This document shows positions 4,476 to 52,933 of a stretch of 64,000 bases of DNA, piece by piece. The stretch comes from Escherichia phage phita32, in sequence record PQ758395. One strand, given 5' to 3'. Below the pieces are notes generated by a model. It made no database searches. It was not told the origin of the DNA and was given only the letters and a program-made list of their open reading frames with translations. Each line of letters begins with the position of its first letter. The stretch's first letter is position 1. A program made the translations under genes and the position numbers.

Positions 4476-6543
4476 ATTTATGGCATCTGCATACAACCGT
4501 TTCGGTGAGCCAAACCCGAAAGCAACTAAGTATAAAAGTGGGGGAAGTGTGAAACGAGACTATCGTGATGAAAAAGAAGTTGAAACTGTAGAGACTGTTT
4601 TAGAAAATACTAAAATTGTCCCTGTCCCACAACAAAATATCGGTCTGATGGCTGCACAATATTTTGGTGTGCGATCAGCATTGTCCCAAGAAGACGGTGT
4701 GACAGTCACTGCAACATATTTCCCATATTACGACCGCTACGGAAATCTGTCTGGTTTCAAAAAGCGTGACTGGACTATTCCTAAAGAGCAAAGGGGCCAT
4801 TTCTCCGTTGTTGGCATCGTAAAGGCCAACTCCCAGATGTTTGGTCAAAAGCTGTGTGCATCTTCCAACAACCGTAAGCAGATTAACGTTTGTGAGGGAG
4901 AAGGTGATGTTATTGCAGCATGGCAGGCTGCATATCAGATACAAGTAAAAGGGATTCTCACCAACGCTAAAGCCCCGGCAAAGGTGAAGCAGTGGGCTAA
5001 AGAGGTCCAGGACGGGATCGACGCAGTTATCAACGGTGGTGATCTGGCAGGAAAACCATGCCTACCTTTTGTTGGAATTAACTGTGGATGTGCAAACGCA
5101 GTAGATACTTTTGCAAACAATGAGAAGTTTATCCGTAGCTATGGAACAGTTGTGCTGGCAATGGATAATGATGCAGCTAACGAGGTAGAGAAGCAAAAAC
5201 ACGTCATTAAAGGTGTTGAGGCCACGCATAATATCGCAGCATTTTTGATGGCTGATAACGTTTACCACGTAGAATACCCTGGTGAAGTAAATGACCCTGA
5301 CGGTGTAAAAGATATCCGAGACATGCTGAAGGCTAAAAAGCTGGAAGATATTGTCAACATGTTCCGGCACCCTGTTAAATATGTGCCTGATGCTGTGTCG
5401 GATTTAGAAGACTTCTCTATCGAGTCTTTGCGGAAAAAGACTTCCAACGGGGTAGATATCAGCGCAGAGTTCCCAAAACTGCAAAAAATGCTAAAAGGCT
5501 TGCACAAAGGGACACTCGTAATGCTTACAGGCCCGTCAGGTGGCGGTAAAACAACTGTAGCTAAAAAACTGGAACACTGTATTGCAAGATACCTAATGGA
5601 CCCGACATGTCCGAAGGCCGATGACTACGAAGAGGATGATCGTCTATGCATGATCCATCTTGAGGAGGACCCAGAGGAAGCAATTAACTCCTTGTATGCA
5701 AACCAGTTAGGGTTTGATGTTAAAGAGTTTGTTGAAGATCCTAGCCAGTTTTTAACTGATCAAGAACACGCAGAGATTCACCAATCATGGGCAAAAGCTG
5801 GAAAAATCAAAGTGTTCAAACATTTCGGATCTATTCCGGTGGACGAGTTGATTACTAAGCTTAAGCAAATGGTTTGCCTGTACCATTGTCGTTATATTGT
5901 ACTGGATCACCTGTCCATGGTAATTTCAGGGCTTAATGTTAAGGATGAGCGAAAAGAACTGGACATGGCTATGACCCAACTGGCTGCGTTTTGTAAGCAG
6001 TTTAACGTGTTTATCTTGGTGATCGCTCACCTCAAGCGTATAGAGATTGTGCCTCCTAAGGACAAGGATGGTAACCCGTTACCTTTCTGGTATCCTGTGC
6101 GAAAAGAGAATTTGCGAGGATCGGCTGGGCTTGAACAGTTGAGTTGGGTAGTCATAGGTGTCGAGGCCGAAGAAATGGTGGATCGTTCTCGTGGACGTGT
6201 CCGTCTGGTAGGTCTTAAAAACCGTCCAGCAAAAACTTTAGGTATTGCTGACACTTTAGTTATGGACCCTCACACAGGCAAGTTCCATGATGCCAGCAAT
6301 TGGTACTGGGACAAAGAAATGCAGATGTTTACAGACGGAGAAGGTGGGGAGGTTGTTTGGAGACCTCAGGCTATGTTTGAGGATCAGGAGCATACAGTTG
6401 TAGAAACACCTATGGGTAAGGTTGTGGCTGATAAGGTTGTAACTCCTACTGTTAAGCCTGTTGACACGCAGGAAGACCTCCAGTACGATGATCCATCCTC
6501 TGACCCTGTCCCTGGTTTTGAGGACGATGAAACGCCTTTTTAA
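4465..6543 (+). CDS. bifunctional DNA primase/helicase (Toprim + DnaB-like RecA-fold ATPase, T7 gp4-like)
   Basis: Toprim-like VCEGEGDVIAAW and LAMDNDAANE acidic motifs; Walker A LTGPSGGGKTT; Walker B YIVLDHLSM; AAGGAG SD. Confidence 0.8.
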   Translation: MGSKFMASAYNRFGEPNPKATKYKSGGSVKRDYRDEKEVETVETVLENTKIVPVPQQNIGLMAAQYFGVRSALSQEDGVTVTATYFPYYDRYGNLSGFKKRDWTIPKEQRGHFSVVGIVKANSQMFGQKLCASSNNRKQINVCEGEGDVIAAWQAAYQIQVKGILTNAKAPAKVKQWAKEVQDGIDAVINGGDLAGKPCLPFVGINCGCANAVDTFANNEKFIRSYGTVVLAMDNDAANEVEKQKHVIKGVEATHNIAAFLMADNVYHVEYPGEVNDPDGVKDIRDMLKAKKLEDIVNMFRHPVKYVPDAVSDLEDFSIESLRKKTSNGVDISAEFPKLQKMLKGLHKGTLVMLTGPSGGGKTTVAKKLEHCIARYLMDPTCPKADDYEEDDRLCMIHLEEDPEEAINSLYANQLGFDVKEFVEDPSQFLTDQEHAEIHQSWAKAGKIKVFKHFGSIPVDELITKLKQMVCLYHCRYIVLDHLSMVISGLNVKDERKELDMAMTQLAAFCKQFNVFILVIAHLKRIEIVPPKDKDGNPLPFWYPVRKENLRGSAGLEQLSWVVIGVEAEEMVDRSRGRVRLVGLKNRPAKTLGIADTLVMDPHTGKFHDASNWYWDKEMQMFTDGEGGEVVWRPQAMFEDQEHTVVETPMGKVVADKVVTPTVKPVDTQEDLQYDDPSSDPVPGFEDDETPF

Positions 6544-6601: not shown

Positions 6602-9025
6602 ATGAGTATGTGGTCTTTCGATCTGGAGGCCTCCGGGCTTTTGGAAGATCTAGATCTTTATTATCACTGCGGTCTGTTTAAAGAGCTGAATAAGAACCGT
6701 TTTATGCTGTTCCTTCCTCTAAATGACCGCACACACTACTCCAAGGAGGATATAGAGAAGGCCAAGAACTTTATTCTGGCAAAGAAAACTCTTTATAAAG
6801 ATTTTGAAGTCCGCATAGCAGATTTTTCGGAGTTGGAAGGTTGGCTTACAGGCAATTCCGACTGGTCACCAACAGCTTTGAACTGCCATAACTGCTACAG
6901 TTATGACTTTATGCTGATGGAGAGATTATCCGGTATTCATTTTGATATGTTCCGTGATCCTAAATGCATGGGGACTATCAACGACCACCAGGTTAATCTG
7001 TTTGATACGTTGGCGATGAGCCGAATCTTGTGGCCTGATCGCCCTTTACCAAAAGGTTGTCCGGACTCTGTATTCAACCCGGTTACTAAGAAAATGCAGC
7101 CTGTTGGTCCTCACGGCCTTATGGCATGGGGCTACGCCCTTGGTAACCAGAAAGTTCAAATTGATGACTGGCGCGATCTTCCGTTGTGGAAGTATGTGGA
7201 TCGTGTATTCGAGGACGTTATCATCCAGGAGCTGCTCTGGAAAGAGCTGGTAGCGGAATCAAAAGGTGTATTCTACGGCAAATCTGACATGCAGAACTTT
7301 ATGTATGATCCTGCCAAAGAGAAGCCGAAAGGGTTCAAGAAGATCACCTGGAAGAACGCATTACGTCGAGGCATGCTGCAGCACTTCCTGATGGAGCTGC
7401 AGGCCCGTCAGGGTGTATACTTCGACATAGATGGAGCTATTGCTTTACGTGACCGTTGCGATGCGTGGATGAAAGAAATCGCTGATCGTGTTGAACCACA
7501 ACTACCTTTAAAAGAGCTGTCAATGTCTCAGCGGCCCAAGTTCCCTGAAAAGCCGTTTAACCAAGACGGGACAATCTCTAATAATGGTTGGAAATGGTTA
7601 AAAGATAAGCTTGGCTATCCTGTAGACATGAGCGCTTTAGAGTTCAAAGCCCCGCCTAAGCGAGCATTTACCTCTACAGGGGATGTCAGCAAGATGGGGA
7701 TAAAATGGTGTGAAGAGATGGGCTGCAAAGACCCCGATAAGATGGCTGATTTCTTGAGAGGCTATATTAAGGGTACCTCCACACCACAACCTTTACCTAA
7801 AGAGCTAATGGATCAGGCAATAAGTGATCTGCAGCAGAAGCGAATGCCTGACTGCAAGATACCTATGAAAATCGGCAATCAGGACGACATCAAGCGATAC
7901 CTAATCAGTGCTGGTTGGCTCCCAACAATGTGGAGAACTAAAGATGTAACTAAAGACAGCAAGAAGAAAGCTTTACCTGATGCAGATGTTGATGCACGAG
8001 TATATGCATACATGGACGAGCTTTTAGAGTCAGAGTATTGTGACCTGATTATCAACTTCTGGAACAAAACTGATGCTAAGTTTCAGACAACCGTGCACAA
8101 GTTCCGAAGCTTTCCTAACTCCGAAAGGATTAAAAAGGAAGTGTTCGGGAAAATACGTAGAAAAGCCAGGGCACTTATTACTTCTCCGCAACTGAAAGAT
8201 ACGTTTGGACACCTATGCCCAAATCTTGAAAAATTGAACGGAGAGATGGCTAAAGATATCGTCTTGTGGTTATCATTGCGAAACCGCAGATCGGTCCTTG
8301 ATCCAATCAAGGAGGATAAGGTTGATACTGGTCTTCTTAATCACCCACGTTTGAAGATTGACCATAAGCTTCCTGCTAAAAGCTCTGGATTAACAAACAC
8401 TTCCAGACAGAAACACAGTATTTGTGCAAACATGCCTAAACCATCTCCTAAAGTGGTTATGGGTAAAGAGATGCGTAGTCTGTGGGGTGTTCCTCCAGGA
8501 TACTTTGAGATCGGTATTGACGGGTCCAACTTAGAGCAGCTTATCGGGGCTTGGGGTGCCTTTGAGTTCGACAACGGCTTGTATTATGATGTTGTAAGTA
8601 ACGGAGACGCACACCAAAACAATGCTGAGGCATATACAAAAGTAGCAGGCAGAGAGGTGTCCCGTAACGACGGTAAACCTATCACGTATGGGGTTATGTA
8701 CGGGGCACAAAAAGATAAAGTTGCAGATATGCTGGACATCTCTCCAGAGTTGGGACAAAGGGTAATCGATGCACTCTGGGATGCCAACCCAGGTCTTAAG
8801 GGGCGCAAAGAGGATCTGGAGAAATTCTGGGAAGCAACAGGTAAGAAGTTTATCTACTCTTTTGATGGTCATGCTATCTGGACCAGATCTAAACACTCTT
8901 TACTTAATGCATACCAACAAAATGGCGGTGCATCGTTGTGTGACTTAGTTGGAATACTCATGCACCACCAGATGGTGAAGCGTGGGTGGTACGATGAAGG
9001 TGTTCGTCGTATTATTTATTACCAT
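6602..9025 (+). CDS. DNA polymerase, family A, exon 1 (3'-5' exo + palm motifs A and B)
   Basis: N-terminal FDLEASG Exo I-like motif; motif A YFEIGIDGSNLEQL; motif B RNDGKPITYGVMYGAQ; ORF runs 2 codons into intron before stop at 9031. Confidence 0.8.
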
Positions 9026-9301
9026 AAATAACATTGTGGCTTCATAGAGTAATCTATGTCGAATAACCTCTTTAACTGCGGGAAGCCTAAACCTTATGGC
9101 AAGGTAATCCGCAACGAAGCGCTCAAAAGAGCGAACGCTCAGAGGCCATTCCGAAAGGAAGTAGACCAGCAAGTGCGGTCGAAATGGGAGGATTCCTGTG
9201 GTTGCTTATTATAGGAATATGAGATGGTCCGATCCTACGTGAAAACGTATGGCTATGCACGTAATGGTGCGGGGTAGCTTAACGACCTACCTGAACTATT
9301 G
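9026..9301 (+). ncRNA. group I self-splicing intron (no ORF) in DNA polymerase gene
   Basis: Exon 1 ends in U (..UACCAU) pairing with intron GUGG guide at 9037-9040; intron ends in G 9301; P/Q/R/S-like core elements AACTGCGGGAAGC 9074-9086, TAATCCGCAACG 9105-9116, GCTCAGAGGCC 9137-9147, GAGATGGTCCGATCC 9221-9235; splicing restores motif C YHDEYQLQV. Confidence 0.6.
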
Positions 9302-29983: not shown

Positions 29984-30403
29984 ATGAATATTAAATCTAA
30001 CAATCCCGCATACAGCTTTGATAACGCTTTTTGTCACGGCCCAGCCGCAAAAGGTTTTGAAATTGATGGTAAACTGGTTATTGTGAATGTTGACGGGGAA
30101 GAGGTTGCAGTATATCCGGTGGCAGACGTTAAAAGCCGTTTACAATGCCGCATTGATGTTACCGCATATCAGCTTGATCCGGTCCGCGTAGTTGCCCTGG
30201 TCCTGGAGGAAGAAATCAAAGCGATGCACCATAGTAACAGGTTTATTGGTGACGCGCAGGATAATATGAAGGTGTGCCGTTATAAAGTTAATGAAGTGCT
30301 TAAAGAATATGGATTTAAGGATCTGATGATCAAACGTGATGAAAAATTTCGTTATCGTAACGACCTGGCAAATCGAATCTATGAAATATACGAATCATTA
30401 TAA
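29984..30403 (+). CDS. hypothetical protein
   Basis: ORF with AAGAGGTAAA SD; last gene of the rightward array. Confidence 0.5.
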   Translation: MNIKSNNPAYSFDNAFCHGPAAKGFEIDGKLVIVNVDGEEVAVYPVADVKSRLQCRIDVTAYQLDPVRVVALVLEEEIKAMHHSNRFIGDAQDNMKVCRYKVNEVLKEYGFKDLMIKRDEKFRYRNDLANRIYEIYESL

Positions 30404-30421
30404 TTTTTTAACTGAATTATC

Positions 30422-30448
30422 AAGGGGCTTAAAGCCCCTTTCTTTTTG
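30422..30448 (+). terminator. rho-independent terminator
   Basis: AAGGGGCTT-t-AAGCCCCTT hairpin then TCTTTTTG. Confidence 0.7.
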
Positions 30449-30449
30449 T

Positions 30450-33020
30450 CTCCTCTTTTCCTACCACAAACGGCCAAGCCTGGCAAGTGGAATAATTGAC
30501 TAGCCAGCAATTACCAACACTGTACAAACATACATGTAAAATAGCTATTGCATAATATTTCATTGTGTGGTAGCAGGGCCATTTTTACCCGCTTTTCCTT
30601 CCAAAACTGCATGTAATTCCACTATTGCACAAAATTTAACCTGATGCACAATATCTCTTTCTTGTCAACAACTAAAAATCTTTATAAGTCATACACTTAC
30701 ATAACCACAAAAGCGTGTTCTACGTGAAAAATCGGGTATAACTATAGCCACTAAATTCCAGAATTCACGTAGCGTCACCATTCTATAGCCCGCTAAGTAT
30801 TTATTCCGACCATAGAATAACGGAATAGTCAATACCTGCATAAAATAATTATTCGTGTAAACTGCATAACATAAATCAGCTAGGGTGTCAACATTTTTCG
30901 TAAACAGCTTGAAATTATCACGGTGAGTTATCATAAGCAGATAAATCTTTAGTCGTCTAATGTTTACTGTACGTTACTATACTAACTGAAATCATTAGAT
31001 GACTAAGAGAAAGATAAGAAATCATTAACAATGCAATTGTTTTATTCGTAACAATAAGGCAACTATGCAAACGAATGGCATGGCGCGACGGAGTCGCGAC
31101 ATAATATAAAAGCAGTAACCATCACCCCCGTGATAGTTTGTCTGCAAACTATTAATCAGATCATAGTTGCCTTGTATTTAGTTAATCATGACATAAACTC
31201 AGGCATAGCCTTCGTCTCGAGGATGTTAACAAGCAAGGCAACTATAGATCTGCTAATAGTTGCCCTGCTTTTATATTATGTCATAGAAACACCCGAAGGG
31301 GTGACCAAAGGTCACCTGGCATAGCCAGTGAAAGATTATTAACTTGCTAATTGTCAACTTGTTGGCTGTTAGCTTGTCAATTGTAAACTAGTTAATTGTT
31401 ATCATGCAAACGAATGGCATGGCTTATCATCTATGCGTGAACTATCCAGGCGTAAACAGTCTATGTGGGAACAATCTATACGTGAACAGTGAAACATGAA
31501 ATAATAACAGTCGTTATTGTGGCGTATTGTGCTGCAGTATGTCATATTGTGTCAGACAAGTTTTTCTCCTCTTTGTCAAGTGCTGCATGAAAAATTTACA
31601 ATCTTGTATGGTAGCATTTTGCGGCCCTGTTTACATTCAGGAATGTATGTATAATCCTTGTTGTGTGGGCGTTTAGACGTCTGGACGGTCAGAAGTCTGC
31701 AGGTTAATATCTAATCTATTGGCTGCTAACTATATCCCCCACAAATAATAAGAAATATAATTGTTATATGTGTAAACCGTAACTCATGTTATCAATCCCT
31801 GTATGTATCGCCAGTGGTGCGCATAATGGGTATTATGTTAAATTGCCCGTAATGATAACTATTCTCACAATGATAGGTATTCTCATTCACCCCACAAGAT
31901 AGGTTGCAAATGTTGTGCCACTGTGTGAACGGCCTCACCTATTAATTTGCCTCACTGCCTCGATATTTGAGAATTATTATAAGAATGAAAAGTATTCCCA
32001 TTTCGTCCGCCTGGCAGCACTCCAGTCGCTACCGGCTCCTGACAGGGAAGCACTCCTGTAGGACAAGCACAAAATCGTGGTATAACTGGACCTGTTCAGA
32101 TATTTCTGGCTGGCTCTTCAGGTCTGTGTGGGAAAAGTCAACCTCTCTGGCGGGGCAGGGGATCATGACGGGAAAATTGCAGGTCAATTAAAAAATTTAC
32201 GTGGTGTATGAAGCGCTCTTCAGGTAAGGCATGTATTATGGGATGAAACCCTCTTCAGGCAATGATATTTGTGGGTGTGATATTTGCTGGAAAGCCAGAT
32301 ATGACGGGACTCCCGTCGGGGCAGGGGTAGTACAGACAGGGAAAATATGGGGATGTAGTTGGGGAAATTGATCAGACAGGTAGAGTATGGAATATGTTAC
32401 AAGTATGTTAACTATGGAGGGTGAATATCTGTAGGATTTGTGTGTAAAATCAAAGACTTAAGTGGTGTTGTGGTATTTTCTATAAATAATTCAAGTTTAA
32501 TAGGTAATATTTGTCTCTATCCGCTTTGTGTGGTAAACAGATTCAGATGAGATTGGTTTACAAGTGTATACATAATATACAAATTAAAGATACAAGAAAC
32601 CCCCCTCCCCCTTCAGCTACCATTCACCTTTTCCTCTGACTGGTACTTAAACACTTATTCAGACTCTTCAGGTTATCACCCATATATCATATGGCAGTGA
32701 CTGGTGTCCTCCGGCCCCTCTTTCGTCACCCGTCCGCTTCGCCATGCTAATGCCATAGCCAAATGTTCGGTTGTTCACCCTGTTCACTCAGGTGTATCTC
32801 CATACCCCTTCAAACCGAAGAGAACAGAAAACCCGAATTACTCGGTAAAAGAAAAGAGAAGAACTTAATTTTATCAGGATAGGCAAGAATGTCAAGGCAT
32901 GACTGCTCACTAAACAAGCAAACAGTCATGTGTGGTAGGTAAGTGATTGTGGTGGTAGGAAATTTAGTTGAAAGATGTGTTATAGGTGCTTCCAGCACTT
33001 TAGCCGGGCAACTAATTGTG
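30450..33020. other. 2.6-kb ORF-free, repeat-dense region between convergent gene blocks (candidate origin/regulatory or ncRNA locus)
   Basis: No ORF of 60 aa or more except one weak hit; repeat families GGCAACTAT/ATAGTTGCC (x4, 31050-31280), CTATRYGTGRAAC direct repeats (31431-31490), CAAACGAATGGCATGGC (x2), CTCTTCAGG (x4-5), GGGGCAGGGG (x2). Confidence 0.5.
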
Positions 33021-33022
33021 TG

Positions 33023-33238
33023 TCAGTCCAGTGGTTCATCACCTACTTCACTGAAATCGATGTTCATGGTCTCCTCCCAACCATCAATCTCAGCACCAGA
33101 GTAGAGATCTTTAGGACTCACTCCCAAAGCCTCAGCAACAGAATCCATGTTTAACACTTCTGGCAGGTACGATTCATCGAATTCGAGGTAAATCAGGCCA
33201 CGAGTGTTGTCAGCTCCACCAAATATTTCTATCTTCAT
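33023..33238 (-). CDS. hypothetical acidic protein
   Basis: ORF with AGGAGA SD; first/most distal gene of leftward block. Confidence 0.45.
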   Translation of the reverse strand: MKIEIFGGADNTRGLIYLEFDESYLPEVLNMDSVAEALGVSPKDLYSGAEIDGWEETMNIDFSEVGDEPLD

Positions 33239-33359
33239 GAAATCTCCTCTAGAAATGAGAGTGTGAACAGGGTTTTATACGTTCCAATGCACAGGAATTA
33301 TGCACGTTTGCCTCTTCAGGCCATGCTTTAGCATGAGGAACCTGTGTGGGCTCGGTGCT

Positions 33360-33572
33360 TCATAGTCTACCACCCCTGAACTCTTCGTGCTCAGGCATAA
33401 TAGAGAACCAGATATCTACGATGTCCTCCCACGTCAGGTCATCAGCCTCAGGATCCACCTGGAGCAAAGATGGAGAGTCTTCAGAATCGAAGTTTTCCTC
33501 TTTAACTGGCTCAGCCAAGGGACATATGGTCACTCCTTTGGATGTTTCTTCAGATGCATGTGTGTTGATCAT
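33360..33572 (-). CDS. hypothetical acidic protein
   Basis: ORF; ATGA overlap with upstream small peptide gene. Confidence 0.45.
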   Translation of the reverse strand: MINTHASEETSKGVTICPLAEPVKEENFDSEDSPSLLQVDPEADDLTWEDIVDIWFSIMPEHEEFRGGRL

Positions 33573-33670
33573 GTTCCACCCGTGAGTATTCCGGCAACAG
33601 CCGCTATGGACGTAATGATCATCAGGATCACCACTAAAACCTCGGATAATGTTCTCATTGTGTATCCCAT
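33569..33670 (-). CDS. small membrane peptide (33 aa, not in ORF track)
   Basis: ATG at 33670 downstream of minus-strand promoter; MGYTMRTLSEVLVVILMIITSIAAVAGILTGGT. Confidence 0.35.
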   Translation of the reverse strand: MGYTMRTLSEVLVVILMIITSIAAVAGILTGGT

Positions 33671-33690
33671 ATTCTACAAATTATGTGTGG

Positions 33691-33719
33691 ATACTATCAC
33701 TGGAGCGGTAATGTGTCAA
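33691..33719 (-). promoter_or_regulatory. sigma70-like promoter, minus strand (TTGACA-17-TAGTAT)
   Basis: Minus-strand -35 is the complement of 33714-33719, -10 the complement of 33691-33696. Confidence 0.55.
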
Positions 33720-33879
33720 CAGAAACGCCGCGAGGGTTTGGTTAAAATCCGAGCGTATGGTGATTTGGGTCAAAACGGACGTGCGTTCTCGCTACGCTCG
33801 AAAGAGGGATTTGTTTGTAGACCGTCCTTAAACGCTCTGTAACGAGACTATCTGTCCAAGGTATGCAATCGTGCACCAG

Positions 33880-33908
33880 ATAAAGAAAAGGACGCCACAG
33901 AGCGTCCT
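33880..33908 (-). terminator. probable rho-independent terminator, minus strand
   Basis: Minus-strand AGGACGC-tctgtg-GCGTCCT then TTTCTTTAT. Confidence 0.55.
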
Positions 33909-33932
33909 AGGTGTCTTAAATTTGATATTTTG

Positions 33933-34235
33933 CTATACCCATGAGGGTTTATCAAGGTTGGAGTAGCTAAAAGGTGTCAAAAGGTGATTGTCAAAATCTC
34001 TCAAACTATCCAGATCTTTTTCCTCGTCCTGACACCATCTGTGTCTACATTTATTGTTGTAGTGCATAGAATGCATAGCGTTCTGCAACTTAACAGGCAC
34101 AAGTGATTCAAGTATTGTTGGGTATGCCAGAACCACCTCAAACAGTGGAAACACATCGAAACTAAAGTCTACCTCTGCAAAGGTTGATGGCATGTAGGAG
34201 TATTTAGCCGCCTTTGTAGACATAATCCACCTCAC
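33933..34235 (-). CDS. hypothetical protein
   Basis: ORF in leftward operon. Confidence 0.45.
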   Translation of the reverse strand: MRWIMSTKAAKYSYMPSTFAEVDFSFDVFPLFEVVLAYPTILESLVPVKLQNAMHSMHYNNKCRHRWCQDEEKDLDSLRDFDNHLLTPFSYSNLDKPSWV

Positions 34236-44473: not shown

Positions 44474-44758
44474 CTACCAGGTCACTGTCAAGTAGGCAAC
44501 TGTGTTATTTTTCTCCGGAGAGATGCCAACAACATCCACCTGCAGACCTCCTTCCCTCAAATCCCCAACAATGTGTGGGAAGTAGTCTGAGAGGTGTGAT
44601 GGGAGATTTATCGAAAATCCACATCCCAGAAAGCCTGCTAACGCTTTATTTTGTATCTCCCCTACAATCGCATCATAAATAGAGTTAAGCTCGTCAGGAA
44701 GCGTTACAGGGCGTTTTAGCGCTAACTGGTGCAACTTGTCCTTAGCACTCATTTTCAT
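44474..44758 (-). CDS. hypothetical protein
   Basis: Start moved from track 44827 to internal ATG 44758 to remove overlap with the MTase gene. Confidence 0.4.
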   Translation of the reverse strand: MKMSAKDKLHQLALKRPVTLPDELNSIYDAIVGEIQNKALAGFLGCGFSINLPSHLSDYFPHIVGDLREGGLQVDVVGISPEKNNTVAYLTVTW

Positions 44759-45288
44759 TTCAAGTCTGCCTCTGGAGGTGCCAACCACATAAATGGCGGC
44801 AGGTCTAAACGGTTCTTCTTGTCCCACACAAAATATGCATATGCTTGCCCGTCAGTTCTGCCATTCGATTGGAATGATGGACGCTTAGATATTGTGATCA
44901 CAGTGGTAGGTGCATTATCAAGCCACCATTCAAATCTGGCTTTGCTTTCCAGAAAATTAAGACGCAAAAGCATAATAACTACGTCAGCATCTTTCAACGC
45001 CTTGTCTACAAACTCACGAGCCAAGCTGTACGGTGGGTTGGTGATAATACAGTCAACATGGTTGTATTCTGTATTCAGATAGTCAACACCTTCTTGGATT
45101 TCTCCCCATGCAGATCCTAACGGCATACGGGAGTAGAACACGCCTGAGGCGCTATTTCTGCAAGGCTCCAAATAGGTCCAATCTTCTGGGAACGGAATGA
45201 GGTCATACAGCCCTTCTGCACACCACTCCGGTGTCACATACTCATCGTAGGCGTTACGTTGTTCATCAGGTTTTCTAGCACAAGTCAT
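44755..45288 (-). CDS. small DNA methyltransferase (N6-adenine / N4-cytosine type)
   Basis: Motif IV DCIITNPPYS (NPPY). Confidence 0.6.
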   Translation of the reverse strand: MTCARKPDEQRNAYDEYVTPEWCAEGLYDLIPFPEDWTYLEPCRNSASGVFYSRMPLGSAWGEIQEGVDYLNTEYNHVDCIITNPPYSLAREFVDKALKDADVVIMLLRLNFLESKARFEWWLDNAPTTVITISKRPSFQSNGRTDGQAYAYFVWDKKNRLDLPPFMWLAPPEADLK

Positions 45289-45339
45289 GCAAATCTCCAG
45301 ATCATAAAAGCCCTCCGAAGAGGGCTTTAGAATTAATGT

Positions 45340-46389
45340 TTAAGCTTCTTCGACAATTCCTGCGCCCAGGATTTTTTCATTGAGCTCTTTTGCTGTTTTA
45401 ATAATATTGTCCACCAGACGCTTACGGGTCTTATCTTTCACCTGAACTTCTTCGCCGCCGTTCAGGGTGGTTTTCAATTGGGACAAAATGTCCTGAAGCT
45501 CTACCACAGAGAATCGCTGCAGATCTTCCGAGGTAATCTCACCCAGTGCAATCTTAACGGTCTCACCACTCTCCATCTGCAGATTCAGGAACACAGTGTG
45601 AACATCACCTTTCGAACCACCCGCTTTTGCAGATTCAACAGCATGAACTAACTCATCTAAAGATGTGCACTGGTGAATCTCCGGAAGACCTGCTTCACCT
45701 AACACGCCTTCTTCATCACCTTTTGCCAGAAGCTTTTTCGGTTTTTGTCCGTTCTGGATGCGTTGTATGTTGCCTTCATCCAGAATAATAGCTCCAGTGC
45801 GTGCTGCCAGCTCTTCTCCGTCCAACCACACTTCGCCACCAGCTGTGATGGATGCGATCTCATCTTCTGTCAGCACCCCACCGTAGTATTTTTCGATCAG
45901 GCGTTCAAAACGTTTTTTCCAGTAGCTGACCTGAGTATTCATGTTCACACCGTTACCATAAGTGCCACCTTGATAGTAGTGGAACATAAATTCTGTGTCC
46001 GGAGCCACAGTACGTTCTTTACAACCAAGCCATAAGATTGTTCCAGCAGAGCAGCACATCCCTTCAGCATGTGCAACAACGCTTGCCTGAGACTCGCGGA
46101 ATGCCTGCAGATAAGCCATTGCAATGTGCACGCAACCCCCAGGGCTATTGATGATCACCCGAATGCTTTCTTCCGGCTGAGCCATACGGATCGTCTGCAG
46201 ACGAGACATATGATCTTGTAAGTCTTCCAAATCGTCGATATAAAGAACGTGGTCAACAACAGGTGTTGGGTAGCTGTATGTTTCCATAATACCACCCGGC
46301 ATACCAAACATTTTATTACTCATAGGTTCGAAACCGTTCTGTTTTTCTTTCATGCCGTGTACTATGGTGCTGCGAGGTGTTAAATTCAT
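45340..46389 (-). CDS. ClpP-like (S14 fold) serine protease domain protein with C-terminal extension
   Basis: RVIINSPGGCVHIAMAY and AHAEGMCCSAGTIL resemble ClpP INSPGG and catalytic Ser region; about 150-aa charged C-terminal extension. Confidence 0.6.
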   Translation of the reverse strand: MNLTPRSTIVHGMKEKQNGFEPMSNKMFGMPGGIMETYSYPTPVVDHVLYIDDLEDLQDHMSRLQTIRMAQPEESIRVIINSPGGCVHIAMAYLQAFRESQASVVAHAEGMCCSAGTILWLGCKERTVAPDTEFMFHYYQGGTYGNGVNMNTQVSYWKKRFERLIEKYYGGVLTEDEIASITAGGEVWLDGEELAARTGAIILDEGNIQRIQNGQKPKKLLAKGDEEGVLGEAGLPEIHQCTSLDELVHAVESAKAGGSKGDVHTVFLNLQMESGETVKIALGEITSEDLQRFSVVELQDILSQLKTTLNGGEEVQVKDKTRKRLVDNIIKTAKELNEKILGAGIVEEA

Positions 46390-46449: not shown

Positions 46450-46761
46450 TTATTTAGCAATCACTAAGGAATACTTACGATTGTCAGAAGCATCACAGCT
46501 CAATGATTGCCAGTCTACCACATACCACGTATCATTGTCAACAATTACTTTATCGCCTGTTCTGTAGCAGGTGCTGCTTTCAATAATCCGAGACTCGATA
46601 AAGAATCTGTGTCGGCACTCACGTAGCAACGCTAAGTTGATTATATTACCACCACTGTCCTTGATCCACACATTCTTGTATCCTTTATTTGCCAAAATTG
46701 TCTCGCCTTTATAGACAAACAGGCAGTATATTTTATTCAGTCTCTCTTGTATTGTAGCCAT
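46450..46761 (-). CDS. hypothetical protein
   Basis: ORF with AGGAGA SD downstream of its own promoter. Confidence 0.45.
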   Translation of the reverse strand: MATIQERLNKIYCLFVYKGETILANKGYKNVWIKDSGGNIINLALLRECRHRFFIESRIIESSTCYRTGDKVIVDNDTWYVVDWQSLSCDASDNRKYSLVIAK

Positions 46762-46791: not shown

Positions 46792-46820
46792 ATAATATCT
46801 AAAGCTTACCTGTTTGTCAA
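46792..46820 (-). promoter_or_regulatory. sigma70-like promoter, minus strand (TTGACA-17-TATTAT)
   Basis: Minus-strand -35 is the complement of 46815-46820, -10 of 46792-46797. Confidence 0.55.
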
Positions 46821-46864: not shown

Positions 46865-47653
46865 TTACTCGGAAACAGGGGTCCAAATATGATTTGCACG
46901 ATCCTCTATAAGATTGAGAGCAATCTGACGACCCAACCCGGAACGAACGACATCGTCTGGACTATCAAAGCTGATCATTCCAACCTCGGGATCTGGATGA
47001 CGAGTAAAGAAATCCGTCACCCATGCAAGGCCAGATTTACCAGGGATGTCACGTTGACTATTATCGCCCATAATTACAAGGGTGGCCTGATCAGAGATCC
47101 TTGTAATAATTGACAACATTTCTTCAGGGTTAGTTTGCTGTGCCTCGTCAATCAGGACAAAGCATCGCTCATCGAAACTACGACCACGAATGCTTTCAAC
47201 TTCACAAATCTCGATACGGCTGTTCTGACCATCTCCCAGCATTGCGGCAAAAGCACCTTTGCCAACACGACGACAAATCGTGTCCATCATGCTTCGAAGA
47301 TAGGGCCACAGTTTTTGCATTGCATTCCCTGGTTTAAATCCTGAAGTCTTTCCTGTCTGAACGTAAGGACGTGCAACAATGATCTTATCAATCTCGTTCT
47401 TACGCAGAAGATCACCTGCATATGCAGATGCCATGAATGTCTTACCGGATCCAAACACACCGTTTACAATAATAATCTTACGTGACCCTAGATAATCAAG
47501 ATACTTTTGCTGCTTCTTATTCATTGGTCGGAGAGCTGGAGCAGTGTGCTCTCTTTCGTCAGCAAATTTCTCAGCAGCCTTACGCAGGCGATCAGATTTG
47601 CGAGCCTCTCTAGCTTCATCACGCATGCGTTTTGTTTCTTTAGCTCGACCCAT
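46865..47653 (-). CDS. phoH: PhoH-like ATPase
   Basis: Walker A GVFGSGKTF, Walker B FVLIDEAQ and overall PhoH-family pattern. Confidence 0.8.
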   Translation of the reverse strand: MGRAKETKRMRDEAREARKSDRLRKAAEKFADEREHTAPALRPMNKKQQKYLDYLGSRKIIIVNGVFGSGKTFMASAYAGDLLRKNEIDKIIVARPYVQTGKTSGFKPGNAMQKLWPYLRSMMDTICRRVGKGAFAAMLGDGQNSRIEICEVESIRGRSFDERCFVLIDEAQQTNPEEMLSIITRISDQATLVIMGDNSQRDIPGKSGLAWVTDFFTRHPDPEVGMISFDSPDDVVRSGLGRQIALNLIEDRANHIWTPVSE

Positions 47654-49250: not shown

Positions 49251-50222
49251 TCAGCAACCACAACTTCCGTAGTGCTTAACCCGTTCTATAACTTCCGCTT
49301 GCTTACCCTTATTGTAAGGACGGGAGTTAGGACTGGAAAGGTATCCAGACACACGTCGAATTACGCTGATCGTTCCCTCTTCATGGTTTCCACACTCTGG
49401 GCATACAAAGCCTTTAGCTGTTGCACTGAACTCACCAGAGAAACCACACTTGAGACATTTATCCACAGGCTGGTTGATACCAAAATACATAATGTGTTTA
49501 TATCCGAAATCAACAAGAGCTTCCAAAGCATCTAAGTTGTTTTTCAGATTTGGTGTCTCTACGTATCCGATGTTGCCACCAGAGGAGATCATAGCAAAAC
49601 CTTCCTCATACTCCCACTTATCAAAAGGAGAGCTATTGATCCATACTGGCTGATGGAAACTGTTGGTGAGATATTCATGCTCGTGCTTCAACACTTCAGG
49701 ATATTCACGATCCAGACAGGTTGCAGCTTTATAGCATAGACTCTCAGAAGGGGTGCCGTACAAGCTAAACGCTAGTCTACTTTCCTTCTTGTATCGCTCA
49801 CAAGCATCTCTCATGTGCTGAAGTATTCCAAGAGCTAAAGCCTTGTCACCCTCCCTGCCCAAAATCTGACAGGTTTCATACACACCAATATACCCAATAC
49901 TGATGGAAGCGTACCCGTCATAGAAGAGTTTATCAATACTCTCTTCAGGATCCAGGCGAGCAAGAGCGCCTTCACACCACATGATAGGGTTCTGCCCTGC
50001 CTTTGTTCCTTTTAGACGGTTAACCCTTACAAGGTGAGCCTCGTATGCAAGATCCAGGTATTCGTCAAGAACTGCAAAGAAATCAACACCTTCCGTTTTA
50101 GCTTTTGCCGCAATCATTGGCAGGTTAAGGCTAACAACGCCTAAGTTAAATCTGCCAAGGTATTTCTCCTCGCCTGTTACAGGGTCGCTATATTTCGATA
50201 AGAAACTTCTACACATTATGTT
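49251..50222 (-). CDS. nrdD: anaerobic ribonucleoside-triphosphate reductase NrdD, exon 3
   Basis: CRSFL..NLGVVSLNLP .. glycyl-radical RVSGYL and C-terminal Cys cluster, colinear with E. coli NrdD residues about 390-712. Confidence 0.8.
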   Translation of the reverse strand, partial: NIMCRSFLSKYSDPVTGEEKYLGRFNLGVVSLNLPMIAAKAKTEGVDFFAVLDEYLDLAYEAHLVRVNRLKGTKAGQNPIMWCEGALARLDPEESIDKLFYDGYASISIGYIGVYETCQILGREGDKALALGILQHMRDACERYKKESRLAFSLYGTPSESLCYKAATCLDREYPEVLKHEHEYLTNSFHQPVWINSSPFDKWEYEEGFAMISSGGNIGYVETPNLKNNLDALEALVDFGYKHIMYFGINQPVDKCLKCGFSGEFSATAKGFVCPECGNHEEGTISVIRRVSGYLSSPNSRPYNKGKQAEVIERVKHYGSCGC

Positions 50223-50993
50223 CAGGGTGGTTCGCAAGTCCACCCCCGCACCTTTACGTGCTGCTGCATGTTCCCATGCAGATCAGACTATATCTTCACA
50301 CTTAGTGTGTCTACCATTTCGAGTGTCATCGGCTTACACCCTACACCGCTACATTCATCACGGTTAGTCGTTAGGCATTTCGTAACAGAACTCGTAATCA
50401 TAGTTATTAGGCGCACCACGTTTCAGGATAGCAGATATTCTTTTTCTATCTACTCCTAAAACATCAGCACAACATCTCAGACTTTTAAAGTGGAAAACCT
50501 CACCAGTTAATTTGTTGGTGGCTTTCACACCGTGGCATCTTGTGTAAAAAGCATAACAGTTGTTGTTGTATCCTTCTTGCGTATTGTCTGGGCAAGCTCC
50601 CCACTCAAGGTTGTATACACTGTTATCTTTCCTGTTGTCCCCTTTGTGCTTAACATAGGGTAAATTGTCTGGATTTGGTAAGAACGCTTCAGCAACAAGT
50701 CTGTGAACCCTTAGGCAAACAGTCTTTTTGTTCTTGCGTATCCTAACAAGACGGTAACCTGTGTTTATCTCTTCCCACGAATGAATAATTCTTTCATTTT
50801 CGTAGCGGGTGCAATAAACATTGCCCATCTCGTCAATTTCATAACCTTCAAAATCACGAATTTGTTTTCTCATTTCAGGACTCCTCTTGGTCAGGAGTTC
50901 TGTTACGTTTAGCACGGGATTGTCCGTTCTGGAGTTTCCCCGTTTAGATAGATTTTACATGAGCAGTTATAGTTTACCCATGCTCGTTACTTT
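50223..50993 (-). mobile_element. group I intron 2 in nrdD carrying an HNH homing endonuclease gene
   Basis: NrdD frame breaks after KVTGSTDG and resumes at NIMCRSF with no start codon; upstream exon ends in U, intron ends in G (complement of 50223); junction uncertain by about 3 nt. Confidence 0.55.
50364..50915 (-). CDS. HNH homing endonuclease (intron-encoded)
   Basis: HNH_3 motif VKHKGDNRKDNSVYNLEW; C-terminal HTH SLRCCADVLGVDRKRISAIL. Confidence 0.8.
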   Translation of the reverse strand: MLNVTELLTKRSPEMRKQIRDFEGYEIDEMGNVYCTRYENERIIHSWEEINTGYRLVRIRKNKKTVCLRVHRLVAEAFLPNPDNLPYVKHKGDNRKDNSVYNLEWGACPDNTQEGYNNNCYAFYTRCHGVKATNKLTGEVFHFKSLRCCADVLGVDRKRISAILKRGAPNNYDYEFCYEMPND

Positions 50994-51275
50994 ACCATCT
51001 GTCGAGCCTGTCACTTTACGATTTAGTGGAACAGAAACAAAGTCAGGATAAATCCGCTCTGCAGAGCATTCCAGAGCTAATCGTTTCAAATCATAGTTAG
51101 GATCTCCAGGGTTCATGTTGACACCCTCTTCTAGGAAGAACAGCACTTTAGGGAACACAGGTGTGATACGTTCTTCACCAAGACCCATTTTGTGGACTTT
51201 CAAGTAATTTTTGGTAATCATTCTACCAAAGACCGAGGTATCCAGTCCTAAACTTAATGTGATGAATGGAGTCTG
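50994..51275 (-). CDS. nrdD: anaerobic ribonucleotide reductase NrdD, exon 2
   Basis: QTPFITLSLGLDTS..ITPVFPKVLFF..GDPNYDLKRLALECS colinear with E. coli NrdD residues about 296-390; no start codon. Confidence 0.7.
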
Positions 51276-52072
51276 CTGTCTCCTCCCTGTGTTTCCACAG
51301 GGCCAGACTATCTCTTACTCTACTTCAATAAGATAATAACCCTTTATTGTGAGATGCTTACCTTCGGCATTTCCTTCGATAGCCCTGTGAACGTTACCTA
51401 CGTTCAAATTTAAGGCTTTTGCACAGGCGTAGAGTGAAGGATATTCACCCACCAAGATTTTCCCTTTGTATGCCTGCACTTTCCTATAGCACTTACCTGG
51501 ACAAAGTCCTGTTCGGAAAGCATGTCTCTTATTATCTTCCGGCAAAACCCACTCTAGGTTAGACGGATGATCATTCAATGTATTGCCATCTTTATGATTC
51601 ACTTCCCAATTTTCAGGGTCTTCTGGGACATCTGGCAAACAATACAAGGCAACAACCCTTGAGGTTTGGATTCGAATCTTTTTACCTTTGTGGTTGAAAG
51701 AGTACATATAACGGCGTTTAACATGCTTATTACCTTTTCCATAACCTCCCCACAATATTGGGTGTAGCATTCCACGTTTTCCGTATACGTTTCCAACTTC
51801 ATCAATCACATAGTTTGATTCTTCACCATTAAGAATGATCTTTTTCATAGAGCCTCTCCATTTCGAAGTTAGTATTTCAACTAACCCCTACACTACTTGG
51901 TTCAGAAATGTTTGTCAAGCATCTCTGCCTTTCGTTAGTCGTTACAACCGTTCCAACTCCTGTAAGAACTAGTCACGGGATTGGCATAGCTTTCGCCTTA
52001 GCGTTCCCCGTTAGCCGGATTTACCGACCCCTCTTATGAGGTTAGGAGAGTTTTACAACGGCCAGTTTGTTA
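51276..52072 (-). mobile_element. group I intron 1 in nrdD carrying an HNH homing endonuclease gene
   Basis: Exon 1 ends ..AACGGU; intron starts UAAACAAACUGGCCGUUG, whose GCCGUU can pair with the exon end including the U-G wobble (P1); intron ends in G (complement of 51276); exon 2 resumes QTPF. Confidence 0.65.
51315..51848 (-). CDS. HNH homing endonuclease (intron-encoded)
   Basis: HNH_3 motif VNHKDGNTLNDHPSNLEW; C-terminal HTH; in same frame as exon 2, separated by a stop. Confidence 0.8.
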   Translation of the reverse strand: MKKIILNGEESNYVIDEVGNVYGKRGMLHPILWGGYGKGNKHVKRRYMYSFNHKGKKIRIQTSRVVALYCLPDVPEDPENWEVNHKDGNTLNDHPSNLEWVLPEDNKRHAFRTGLCPGKCYRKVQAYKGKILVGEYPSLYACAKALNLNVGNVHRAIEGNAEGKHLTIKGYYLIEVE

Positions 52073-52933
52073 ACCGTTGACAGAAGTTAACGTATTGATT
52101 TGATAGAGCAAAGTCTGCATGCTGTCAAATACGTCTTTATCTGTCATTTGCATTGCAACAGTCTCAGCATCTGGCAACCAATGTTCCTGGCAAAATTTAA
52201 GGTTCTTCTCATAGGTCGCTTCAGCATACTGTGCCAGATAATGATCAATATGGCTCATAGTCTGACCCCCATATTGAGCACTAGCTACTGCACTAGAGAT
52301 TTGGCTAAGGATTGTTGTTGCAACCCCTATTGACTTCGGCTTACTGACATGTGCGTTACCAATGTTGAATCCGTTTTCCAACATATCTGGATAATTTACC
52401 AAACAACAGTTTGTTAACGGACTGATCAAGTAGTCAAGATCATGCACATGGATGAAGCCTTTATTGTGCTCTTCTGAGACACGGTCTGGCAGGATCTGTG
52501 TTGATGCAAGGTGTTTGCTAAGGATGCCTGCAAGCAGGTCACGATGAGTGTGTACATGATTGGTAGGCTTATTTGCGTTTTCTTTTGTAAATTCATCACA
52601 AGTTCGATCCAAGAAGCCACTAATATCTGCAAGCAGTTTTCCACCTGCCTCTCTGTTATTATCTCTTGTCTGTCTATACTGGATGTATTCTCTGGCTGCA
52701 CATTTTAAACCCATATCCATAAGAGCATCTTCAACAAGGATATGGATATTTTTTACAGAGATCGTGTACTGGTCGGTTGGCAGATTGTTAGCAACAACTT
52801 CATTAACCGCACAAGCGATCCGGTAAGCTTCTTCTTCAGTATGTCCAGACTCAAGTAAGGCGGACTCTGCCGCCTTGATCACCTTAATTCCGTTATAGAA
52901 CTCTTCTCTACCGTCCCGTTTTACAACTTTCAC
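52073..52933 (-). CDS. nrdD: anaerobic ribonucleotide reductase NrdD, exon 1 (ATP-cone N-terminus)
   Basis: MKVVKRDGREEF ATP-cone start; ENANKPT..HRDLLAGI..HVHDLDY..NAHVSKPKSIG..YQINTLTSVNG colinear with E. coli NrdD residues 1-295. Confidence 0.8.

Follow-up and report, generated by a model that had tools for sequence, protein, structure and literature searches.

The window, by which we mean the whole 64,000-nucleotide stretch of Escherichia phage phita32 DNA analyzed here (PQ758395), spans roughly the helicase-to-endonuclease part of the genome, without the head module. On its minus strand, positions 45340..46389 encode a ClpP-like protease of 349 aa plus a stop codon, the ortholog of rV5 ORF122 and of bas51_0177 in WalterGehring. 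The DNA of this region is 95-97% identical to Vequintavirus genomes such as phiWec193, WalterGehring, and rV5 (95% nucleotide identity with WalterGehring across the ClpP-like region), and the window is Vequintavirus DNA, namely that of an rV5-like myophage. The gene starts with an ATG that has an AAGGA Shine-Dalgarno sequence 7 nt 5' of it; Met13 and Met23 were rejected as alternative starts, since neither has a Shine-Dalgarno sequence to set against the AAGGA at the annotated ATG. Annotated Vequintavirus proteins, among them rV5 ORF122 (ABI79187) and the "ClpP-like protease" of the BASEL collection, share 97-99% identity with the gene product, and the names given to these matches are 'ClpP ATP-dependent protease subunit', 'ClpP-like protease', and 'ATP-dependent protease'. 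The match of the window protein to the phrog_5410 profile (E 4.9e-155) runs from aa 24 to 345 on profile positions 4-322 of 323 and takes in the C-terminal domain; therefore, the fusion of a protease with this C-terminal domain is itself a described phage family. Like the window gene, rV5 ORF122 and bas51_0177 are 349 aa long, have PhoH, small-ORF, and methyltransferase neighbors, and are followed by an equivalent terminator, and the window gene differs from rV5 ORF122 and bas51_0177 in nothing material. It is thus a gene already known as an annotation, a common phage gene belonging to an existing PHROG family, and one that has carried an annotation since the rV5 genome of 2006. Full-text literature searching found no functional study of the phrog_5410-type ClpP-like family; the sole explicit statement found comes from work published in 2023 on BF23, a relative of T5, which gives the function of BF23 ORF45 as 'currently unknown' (PMC10644984).

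Four segments can be distinguished in the protein, all encoded on the minus strand: an N-terminal leader (aa 1-44; 46258..46389), a Clp-fold protease domain (aa 45-215; 45745..46257) that includes a long 'handle' helix at aa 150-169, a flexible linker (aa 216-243; 45661..45744), and a C-terminal domain (aa 244-349; 45343..45660). Whole-ORF analysis of constraint gave dN/dS values of 0.03-0.05 for the protease domain and 0.026-0.035 for the C-terminal domain, that is, strong purifying selection on both, so the entire ORF is a real coding gene. The synonymous distance is uneven along it: dS to both rV5 and WalterGehring rises about 4-fold, from ∼0.095 in the protease domain (45745..46257) to ∼0.40 in the C-terminal domain (45343..45660), and rV5 and WalterGehring differ from each other in the C-terminal domain by a dS of only 0.04. 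This pattern suggests a recombination breakpoint near the domain boundary, with the protein sequence kept on both sides.

The leader is predicted to be disordered (pLDDT < 50); its first 22 residues are Vequintavirus-specific, and aa 24-44 contain the conserved residues Asn25, Tyr40, and Pro41. The protease domain that follows carries the motifs from which the earlier note, made from the sequence by itself, had recognized a ClpP-type N-terminal domain, namely INSPGG at aa 80-85 and GMCCSAGT at aa 110-117, and this assignment is borne out by both profile and structural comparisons. Pfam CLP_protease (PF00574) matches aa 59-168 above its gathering score (47.8 bits; threshold 20.2), which places the protein in the superfamily of Clp/crotonase-fold serine peptidases. 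In an AlphaFold2 monomer model built from a 14-sequence family alignment (mean pLDDT 74.6), aa 45-215 are confidently folded as a Clp domain (pLDDT ∼90) in which the handle helix is present, and a Foldseek comparison of these modeled residues with ClpP chains gave E ∼1e-10 and TM scores of 0.67-0.70, normalized to ClpP. Within this fold, (i) Ser114 (codon 46048..46050, minus strand) aligns with the ClpP nucleophile Ser97, (ii) His137 (codon 45979..45981, minus strand) aligns with ClpP His122, and (iii) Glu186 (codon 45832..45834, minus strand) takes the place of ClpP Asp171. All 14 family members have Ser114 and His137, as do six distant relatives (from ICP1, JG004, T5-like, and N4-like phages), and the GxxCSAG and MFH motifs that surround them are invariant from Vequintavirus to the T5-like phages, the N4-like phages, and ICP1.

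The third catalytic position is more variable. Residue 186 is Glu in the window protein and Gln in 9 of the 14 aligned members (those of the Seunavirus/Erwinia type), so that the catalytic residues do not strictly follow those of ClpP; the corresponding residue is Asp in ICP1, T5-like, and N4-like phages, and of the seven phage proteins compared, most carry Glu or Asp there. The Gln found in many members, which means that a canonical Ser-His-Asp triad is not universal, and the divergence of the N-terminal region would both suit a Clp-fold protein that lacks catalytic activity and acts structurally or as a decoy, binding and blocking host protease partners or substrates. We regard such a role as highly improbable, as Ser114, His137, and their motifs are held invariant over the distances just described, the ORF evolves with a dN/dS of ∼0.03, and the window protein itself has Glu186. 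The invariant Ser114 and His137, taken together with Glu186, instead make it likely that the window protein is an active serine protease.

The remainder of the protein had been described in the earlier note as a Glu/Lys-rich extension of 150 aa. An extension of that size is indeed present, but its charge enrichment is mild: Glu and Lys make up 21.5% of aa 201-349, compared with 14.6% in the long ORFs of the window; of 424 stretches of equal length, 7 attain 21.5%. Rather than a charged stretch, the extension comprises the linker, which varies in length and sequence, has low pLDDT, and is disordered in the model over aa 223-240, and a domain that is folded in the model over approximately aa 244-342, with pLDDT values of 77-91 over aa 270-340. 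The predicted fold consists of a helix, a β-hairpin, a short helix, and two long helices; Phe293, Glu297, Arg322, and Leu325 are invariant, and Leu298 is found in at least 90% of the sequences. A low-complexity charged tail was therefore rejected, given the mild enrichment, the modeled fold, and the constraint seen in dN/dS. When the C-terminal domain was modeled separately and compared with the PDB by Foldseek, the best match had an E value of 0.54 (probability 0.06), and Pfam returned only a sub-threshold MpsC match (17.5 bits against 23). A profile of the domain searched against 1.84 billion representatives produced six matches, each of them this protease fusion or a fragment of one. The C-terminal domain is family-specific and is found only fused to the ClpP-like protease.

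On the chromosome, the gene lies between a DNA methyltransferase gene and a PhoH gene, as had been noted earlier; profile matches identify both neighbors, and one further ORF, of 103 aa, separates the protease gene from PhoH. The conserved downstream neighbor is an N6-adenine DNA methyltransferase gene of 177 aa (44755..45288, minus strand; phrog_799, 5e-67) with an NPPY motif, and the conserved upstream neighbor encodes a PhoH-like ATPase (46865..47653, minus strand; Pfam 160.9 bits). The 103-aa ORF (46450..46761, minus strand) belongs to phrog_5456 and had no Pfam and no PADLOC match; in rV5 and 4MG, too, it precedes the protease gene, and an ORF of similar size is present in CR9. PADLOC returned no match for the protease or for this upstream ORF, and hence no link to defense or anti-defense. 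A sigma-70-like promoter, TTGACA-17-TATTAT (46792..46820, minus strand), has 11 of 12 matches and corresponds to the annotated rV5 promoter P121, and an intrinsic terminator, AGCCCTC-TTCG-GAGGGCT-TTTAT (45304..45326, minus strand), starts 14 nt past the stop codon of the protease gene and equals rV5 t122 (Table S4); this terminator was read from the sequence and is not listed by the automatic scan. The order of the unit in the window is thus promoter, small ORF, protease gene, and terminator. The 103-aa ORF is likely to be co-transcribed with the protease gene, and it could be a partner or a regulator of the protease.

The same surroundings recur in relatives. PhoH, one to three small genes, the ClpP-like gene, and the methyltransferase gene follow one another beside ribonucleotide reductase (RNR) and glutaredoxin genes in rV5, in the Seunavirus 4MG, and in the Certrevirus CR9, and in ICP1 the order is RNR, PhoH, two genes, and then the ClpP-like gene. 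PhoH was considered as a functional partner of the protease and rejected, because the synteny is restricted to Vequintavirinae and ICP1 and is absent around the JG004, T5-like, and N4-like homologs; as it is limited to phages that share the replication module, shared ancestry is a likelier cause than function. With regard to timing, ICP1 gp211, named 'ClpP', is classed as Middle-late, together with PhoH (gp208) and nrdB (PMC7567579, Table S1), and rV5 gene 122 is transcribed in the unit comprising genes 82-163, away from late genes 27-66 and their T4-late-like promoters (PMC3606486). From the promoters and by analogy with ICP1, we infer that the Vequintavirus ClpP-like gene would be made in mid-infection.

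Other parts of the window show features of their own. The class III RNR gene nrdD is in pieces (49251..52933, minus strand), with an N-terminal ORF of 287 aa (52070..52933) and a C-terminal ORF of 330 aa (49251..50243), between which lie two HNH/homing-endonuclease-like ORFs (51315..51848 and 50364..50915); rV5 NrdD is uninterrupted, at 707 aa. No Rfam intron reached its gathering score in this nrdD region (49251..52933). On the plus strand, Rfam RF00028 (63.1 bits, E 1.2e-13) identifies a group I catalytic intron at 9016..9251 that overlaps the end of an 809-aa ORF (6602..9031); this ORF corresponds to the DNA polymerase gene, for which the WalterGehring annotation joins two pieces, with a homing endonuclease inside the gene. 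The strand switch at 30001..34000, where the GC skew changes sign, includes the lowest GC content of the window (0.38 at 30-32 kb) and its counterpart in WalterGehring (93.9-96.4 kb) is a run of ∼2.4 kb in which no genes are annotated; neither a tRNA nor an Rfam family was found within 30001..34000.

The names attached to the Vequintavirus proteins imply a genuine ATP-dependent ClpP subunit, which would form rings that dock host ClpX or ClpA, or would mix with host ClpP, and so redirect host proteolysis. The CLP_protease match above its gathering score, the ClpP-like fold with its handle helix, and the alignment of Ser114, His137, and Glu186 with the catalytic Ser, His, and Asp171 are what such a subunit would show, and cellular ClpP (MEROPS S14; PDB 1tyf and 3mt6) indeed shares with the window protein the fold, the handle helix, and the Ser-His pair in INSPGG/GxxxSxG/MxH motifs. 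It differs, however, in the replacement of Asp171 by Glu or Gln, in an axial-loop region that is left unmatched, and in the extra 135-aa C-terminal region of the window protein. The ClpP equivalog model TIGR00493 scored 33.2 bits against a cutoff of 308.6, and the other ClpP equivalog and subfamily models scored 20-39 bits against cutoffs of 228-361. Moreover, the Pfam CLP_protease match omits the first 31 positions of the profile, which we take to represent the axial-loop region, and the protein begins with 44 residues that are predicted to be disordered.

The docking surface is also altered. We take Tyr60, Tyr62, Phe82, Ile90, Met92, Phe112, and Leu114 of E. coli ClpP to form the IGF/LGF-loop (ADEP) pocket for ClpX and ClpA. 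In a profile alignment to E. coli ClpP, the sequence of which was verified against PDB 3mt6, these residues correspond to Arg77, Ile79, Glu99, His107, Glu109, Thr127, and Ala129, respectively. Five of the seven (Arg77, Glu99, His107, Glu109, and Thr127) are charged or polar and invariant in the family. As read from this alignment, the hydrophobic pocket by which ClpP docks ClpX and ClpA is not conserved in the window protein. The WalterGehring annotation includes no ClpX- or ClpA-like gene and only a MoxR-type ATPase, far from the ClpP-like gene. Further, the V5-like phage LL12 plated normally on all mutants of the Keio collection except those in LPS genes, the only genes that it required (PMC7229145); therefore, host clpX, clpA, and clpP are dispensable for its plating. 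A ClpP subunit working with host unfoldases is thus unlikely, and the common name 'ATP-dependent Clp protease proteolytic subunit' probably over-annotates the protein, because the AAA+ docking pocket has not been kept and the scores are far short of the cutoffs set for the curated ClpP models.

Since the head module lies outside the window, we used the annotated close relative WalterGehring to locate the capsid protease. Its head genes are ordered portal, a 139-aa 'prohead protease' (bas51_0006), scaffold, decoration protein, and major capsid protein. The product of bas51_0006 matches Pfam Peptidase_S78_2 (XkdF) with 65 bits against a cutoff of 24, as well as phrog_3017, 'head maturation protease', and this XkdF/S78_2 prohead protease is 100% conserved across many Vequintavirus records. 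The best PHROG for the gene (4837..5256 in WalterGehring, outside the window) is phrog_1530, which is labeled 'DNA methyltransferase', and the same, apparently wrong label sits on the prohead protease gene in the GenBank/RefSeq records of FV3, FFH2, CR3, and ESCO5. A homolog in ICP1, 40% identical to bas51_0006, is annotated as 'capsid protease'; we infer that it is the same gene as gp125, the predicted procapsid protease within the late capsid cluster gp122-126 (PMC7567579). With an S78_2 protease in the head module and a ClpP-like gene elsewhere, these phages therefore have two unrelated protease-fold genes. The search for the capsid protease elsewhere in the genome that the earlier note had proposed ended, in this relative, at a gene between portal and scaffold. 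The idea of a second copy holds only insofar as the genome has a second protease: the capsid protease and the ClpP-like protein belong to different fold families, which makes the ClpP-like gene an additional protease and not a copy. Nor is it the only protease gene, placed beside capsid genes in relatives, the arrangement by which the earlier note would have known an ordinary prohead protease, and as the only prohead protease it was ruled out by the separate S78_2/XkdF gene in the head module of relatives. The position outside the structural module that had been remarked on is confirmed as well, by the PhoH-to-methyltransferase context in rV5, 4MG, and CR9 and by the proximity to PhoH and RNR in ICP1.

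The window protein could still act beside the XkdF-type protease, as an auxiliary virion or prohead maturation protease that derives from a ClpP-related head protease and is delivered by its C-terminal domain. After its own family, its nearest families are those of head maturation. NF045542, PHROGs 1684, 94, and 133, and the NF045540 protease-capsid fusions are, by profile, its best-scoring characterized relatives (60 and 52 bits), and the phrog_1684 match (8.5e-22) extends into the linker. Like it, the ClpP-related head proteases have a Clp fold and join a protease to an additional C-terminal module, an arrangement that resembles capsid proteases with a prohead-targeting tail. However, its score for the head maturation protease family NF045542 (60.4 bits) is half the curated cutoff of 120, and the gene is not located in a head module. 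In rV5, WalterGehring, 4MG, CR9, and ICP1, every relative examined, it lies across the genome from the head genes, in a unit with RNR, PhoH, and the methyltransferase. As judged from these profile scores, the window protein stands closer to the head proteases of phages than to the ClpP of cells and is a member of neither group; lying under the cutoffs of both places it on a separate branch of Clp-fold proteases.

A protease may also be related to its head genes through the scaffold, as in lambda C/Nu3, where the protease shares the scaffold C-terminus. We rejected a scaffold-like extension of this kind in the window protein, as BLASTP of the C-terminal domain against the Vequintavirus scaffold revealed no similarity (best E 0.36). 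The mass-spectrometry table of rV5 virions was checked for six tryptic peptides or fragments predicted from ORF122 and contains none of them, which is weak evidence against a virion role, since capsid proteases too are often lost from mature virions. The T5-group homolog, BF23 ORF45, was detected at a low level in purified virions (PMC10644984), an observation in favor of an auxiliary head protease; against it, the ICP1 homolog is middle-late whereas the capsid cluster is late (PMC7567579), and a dedicated prohead protease is already present. On balance, we consider an auxiliary role in the head to be rather unlikely.

Non-structural ClpP-like genes are common and have long been annotated in phages (phrog_5410, phrog_1827, rV5 ORF122, and T5.042), so the placement of the window gene away from the capsid genes is not unusual. 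The short Clp-like proteases of phrog_1827, comprising ICP1 gp211, Pakpunavirus JG004 gp042, T5.042/BF23 ORF45, and N4-like VBP47 gp68, have a homologous core with 24-36% identity to that of the window protein, in which the Ser and His are invariant and the third position is mostly Asp or Glu. Most of them are 180-200 aa long and lack the C-terminal domain of the window protein, whereas ICP1 gp211 has an extension of its own, of 130 aa, with no detectable sequence similarity to it. The shorter homologs are located amid early, middle, or nucleotide-metabolism genes in JG004, T5, a T5-like Klebsiella phage, and N4-like VBP47 (T5.042 lies between dnk and holin), and in the T5-like and ICP1 genomes the prohead protease is separate from the Clp-like gene.

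Taken together, we think it reasonably probable that the window gene encodes a non-structural, partner-independent, tethered Clp-fold serine protease of the Vequintavirinae (PHROG 5410) that is made with the replication genes. Expression would occur in mid-infection from the sigma-70-type promoter, together with the small upstream ORF, and the protease would cleave cytoplasmic substrates without docking to host ClpX or ClpA, an independence suggested by the replacement of the hydrophobic pocket by invariant charged residues. Our basis for partner independence, and for the oligomeric state, is the monomer model and the sequence alignment. ClpP-related head-maturation proteases work by being tethered to their substrates. 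In the window protein, the folded C-terminal domain on its linker of ∼30 residues may likewise be a tether, which would either bind a target complex or drive self-assembly, and the substrate could be either a host or a phage protein.

As an addition to what is recorded for these phages, the finding is small, its useful points being the unsupported 'ATP-dependent' label and the presence of a conserved, constrained protease amid replication genes. Protease genes of this kind are carried by many lytic phages (rV5-like, ICP1, T5-like, N4-like, and PAK_P-like). Phage-therapy and biocontrol cocktails make use of rV5-like phages, so a real gap, though one that the window by itself does not make newly testable, would be filled by identifying the cleavage target of the protease. 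More speculatively, and with a fairly low probability in our estimation, the non-structural phage Clp-like proteases (those of Vequintavirinae, ICP1, Pakpunavirus, and T5-like and N4-like phages) might make up a partner-independent, tethered class for host takeover or counter-defense, in which lineage-specific C-terminal modules, here a fold without known relatives, aim a shared core at particular host or phage complexes; if true, this would add a new functional class to the phage proteases, set apart from ClpP and the capsid proteases alike.
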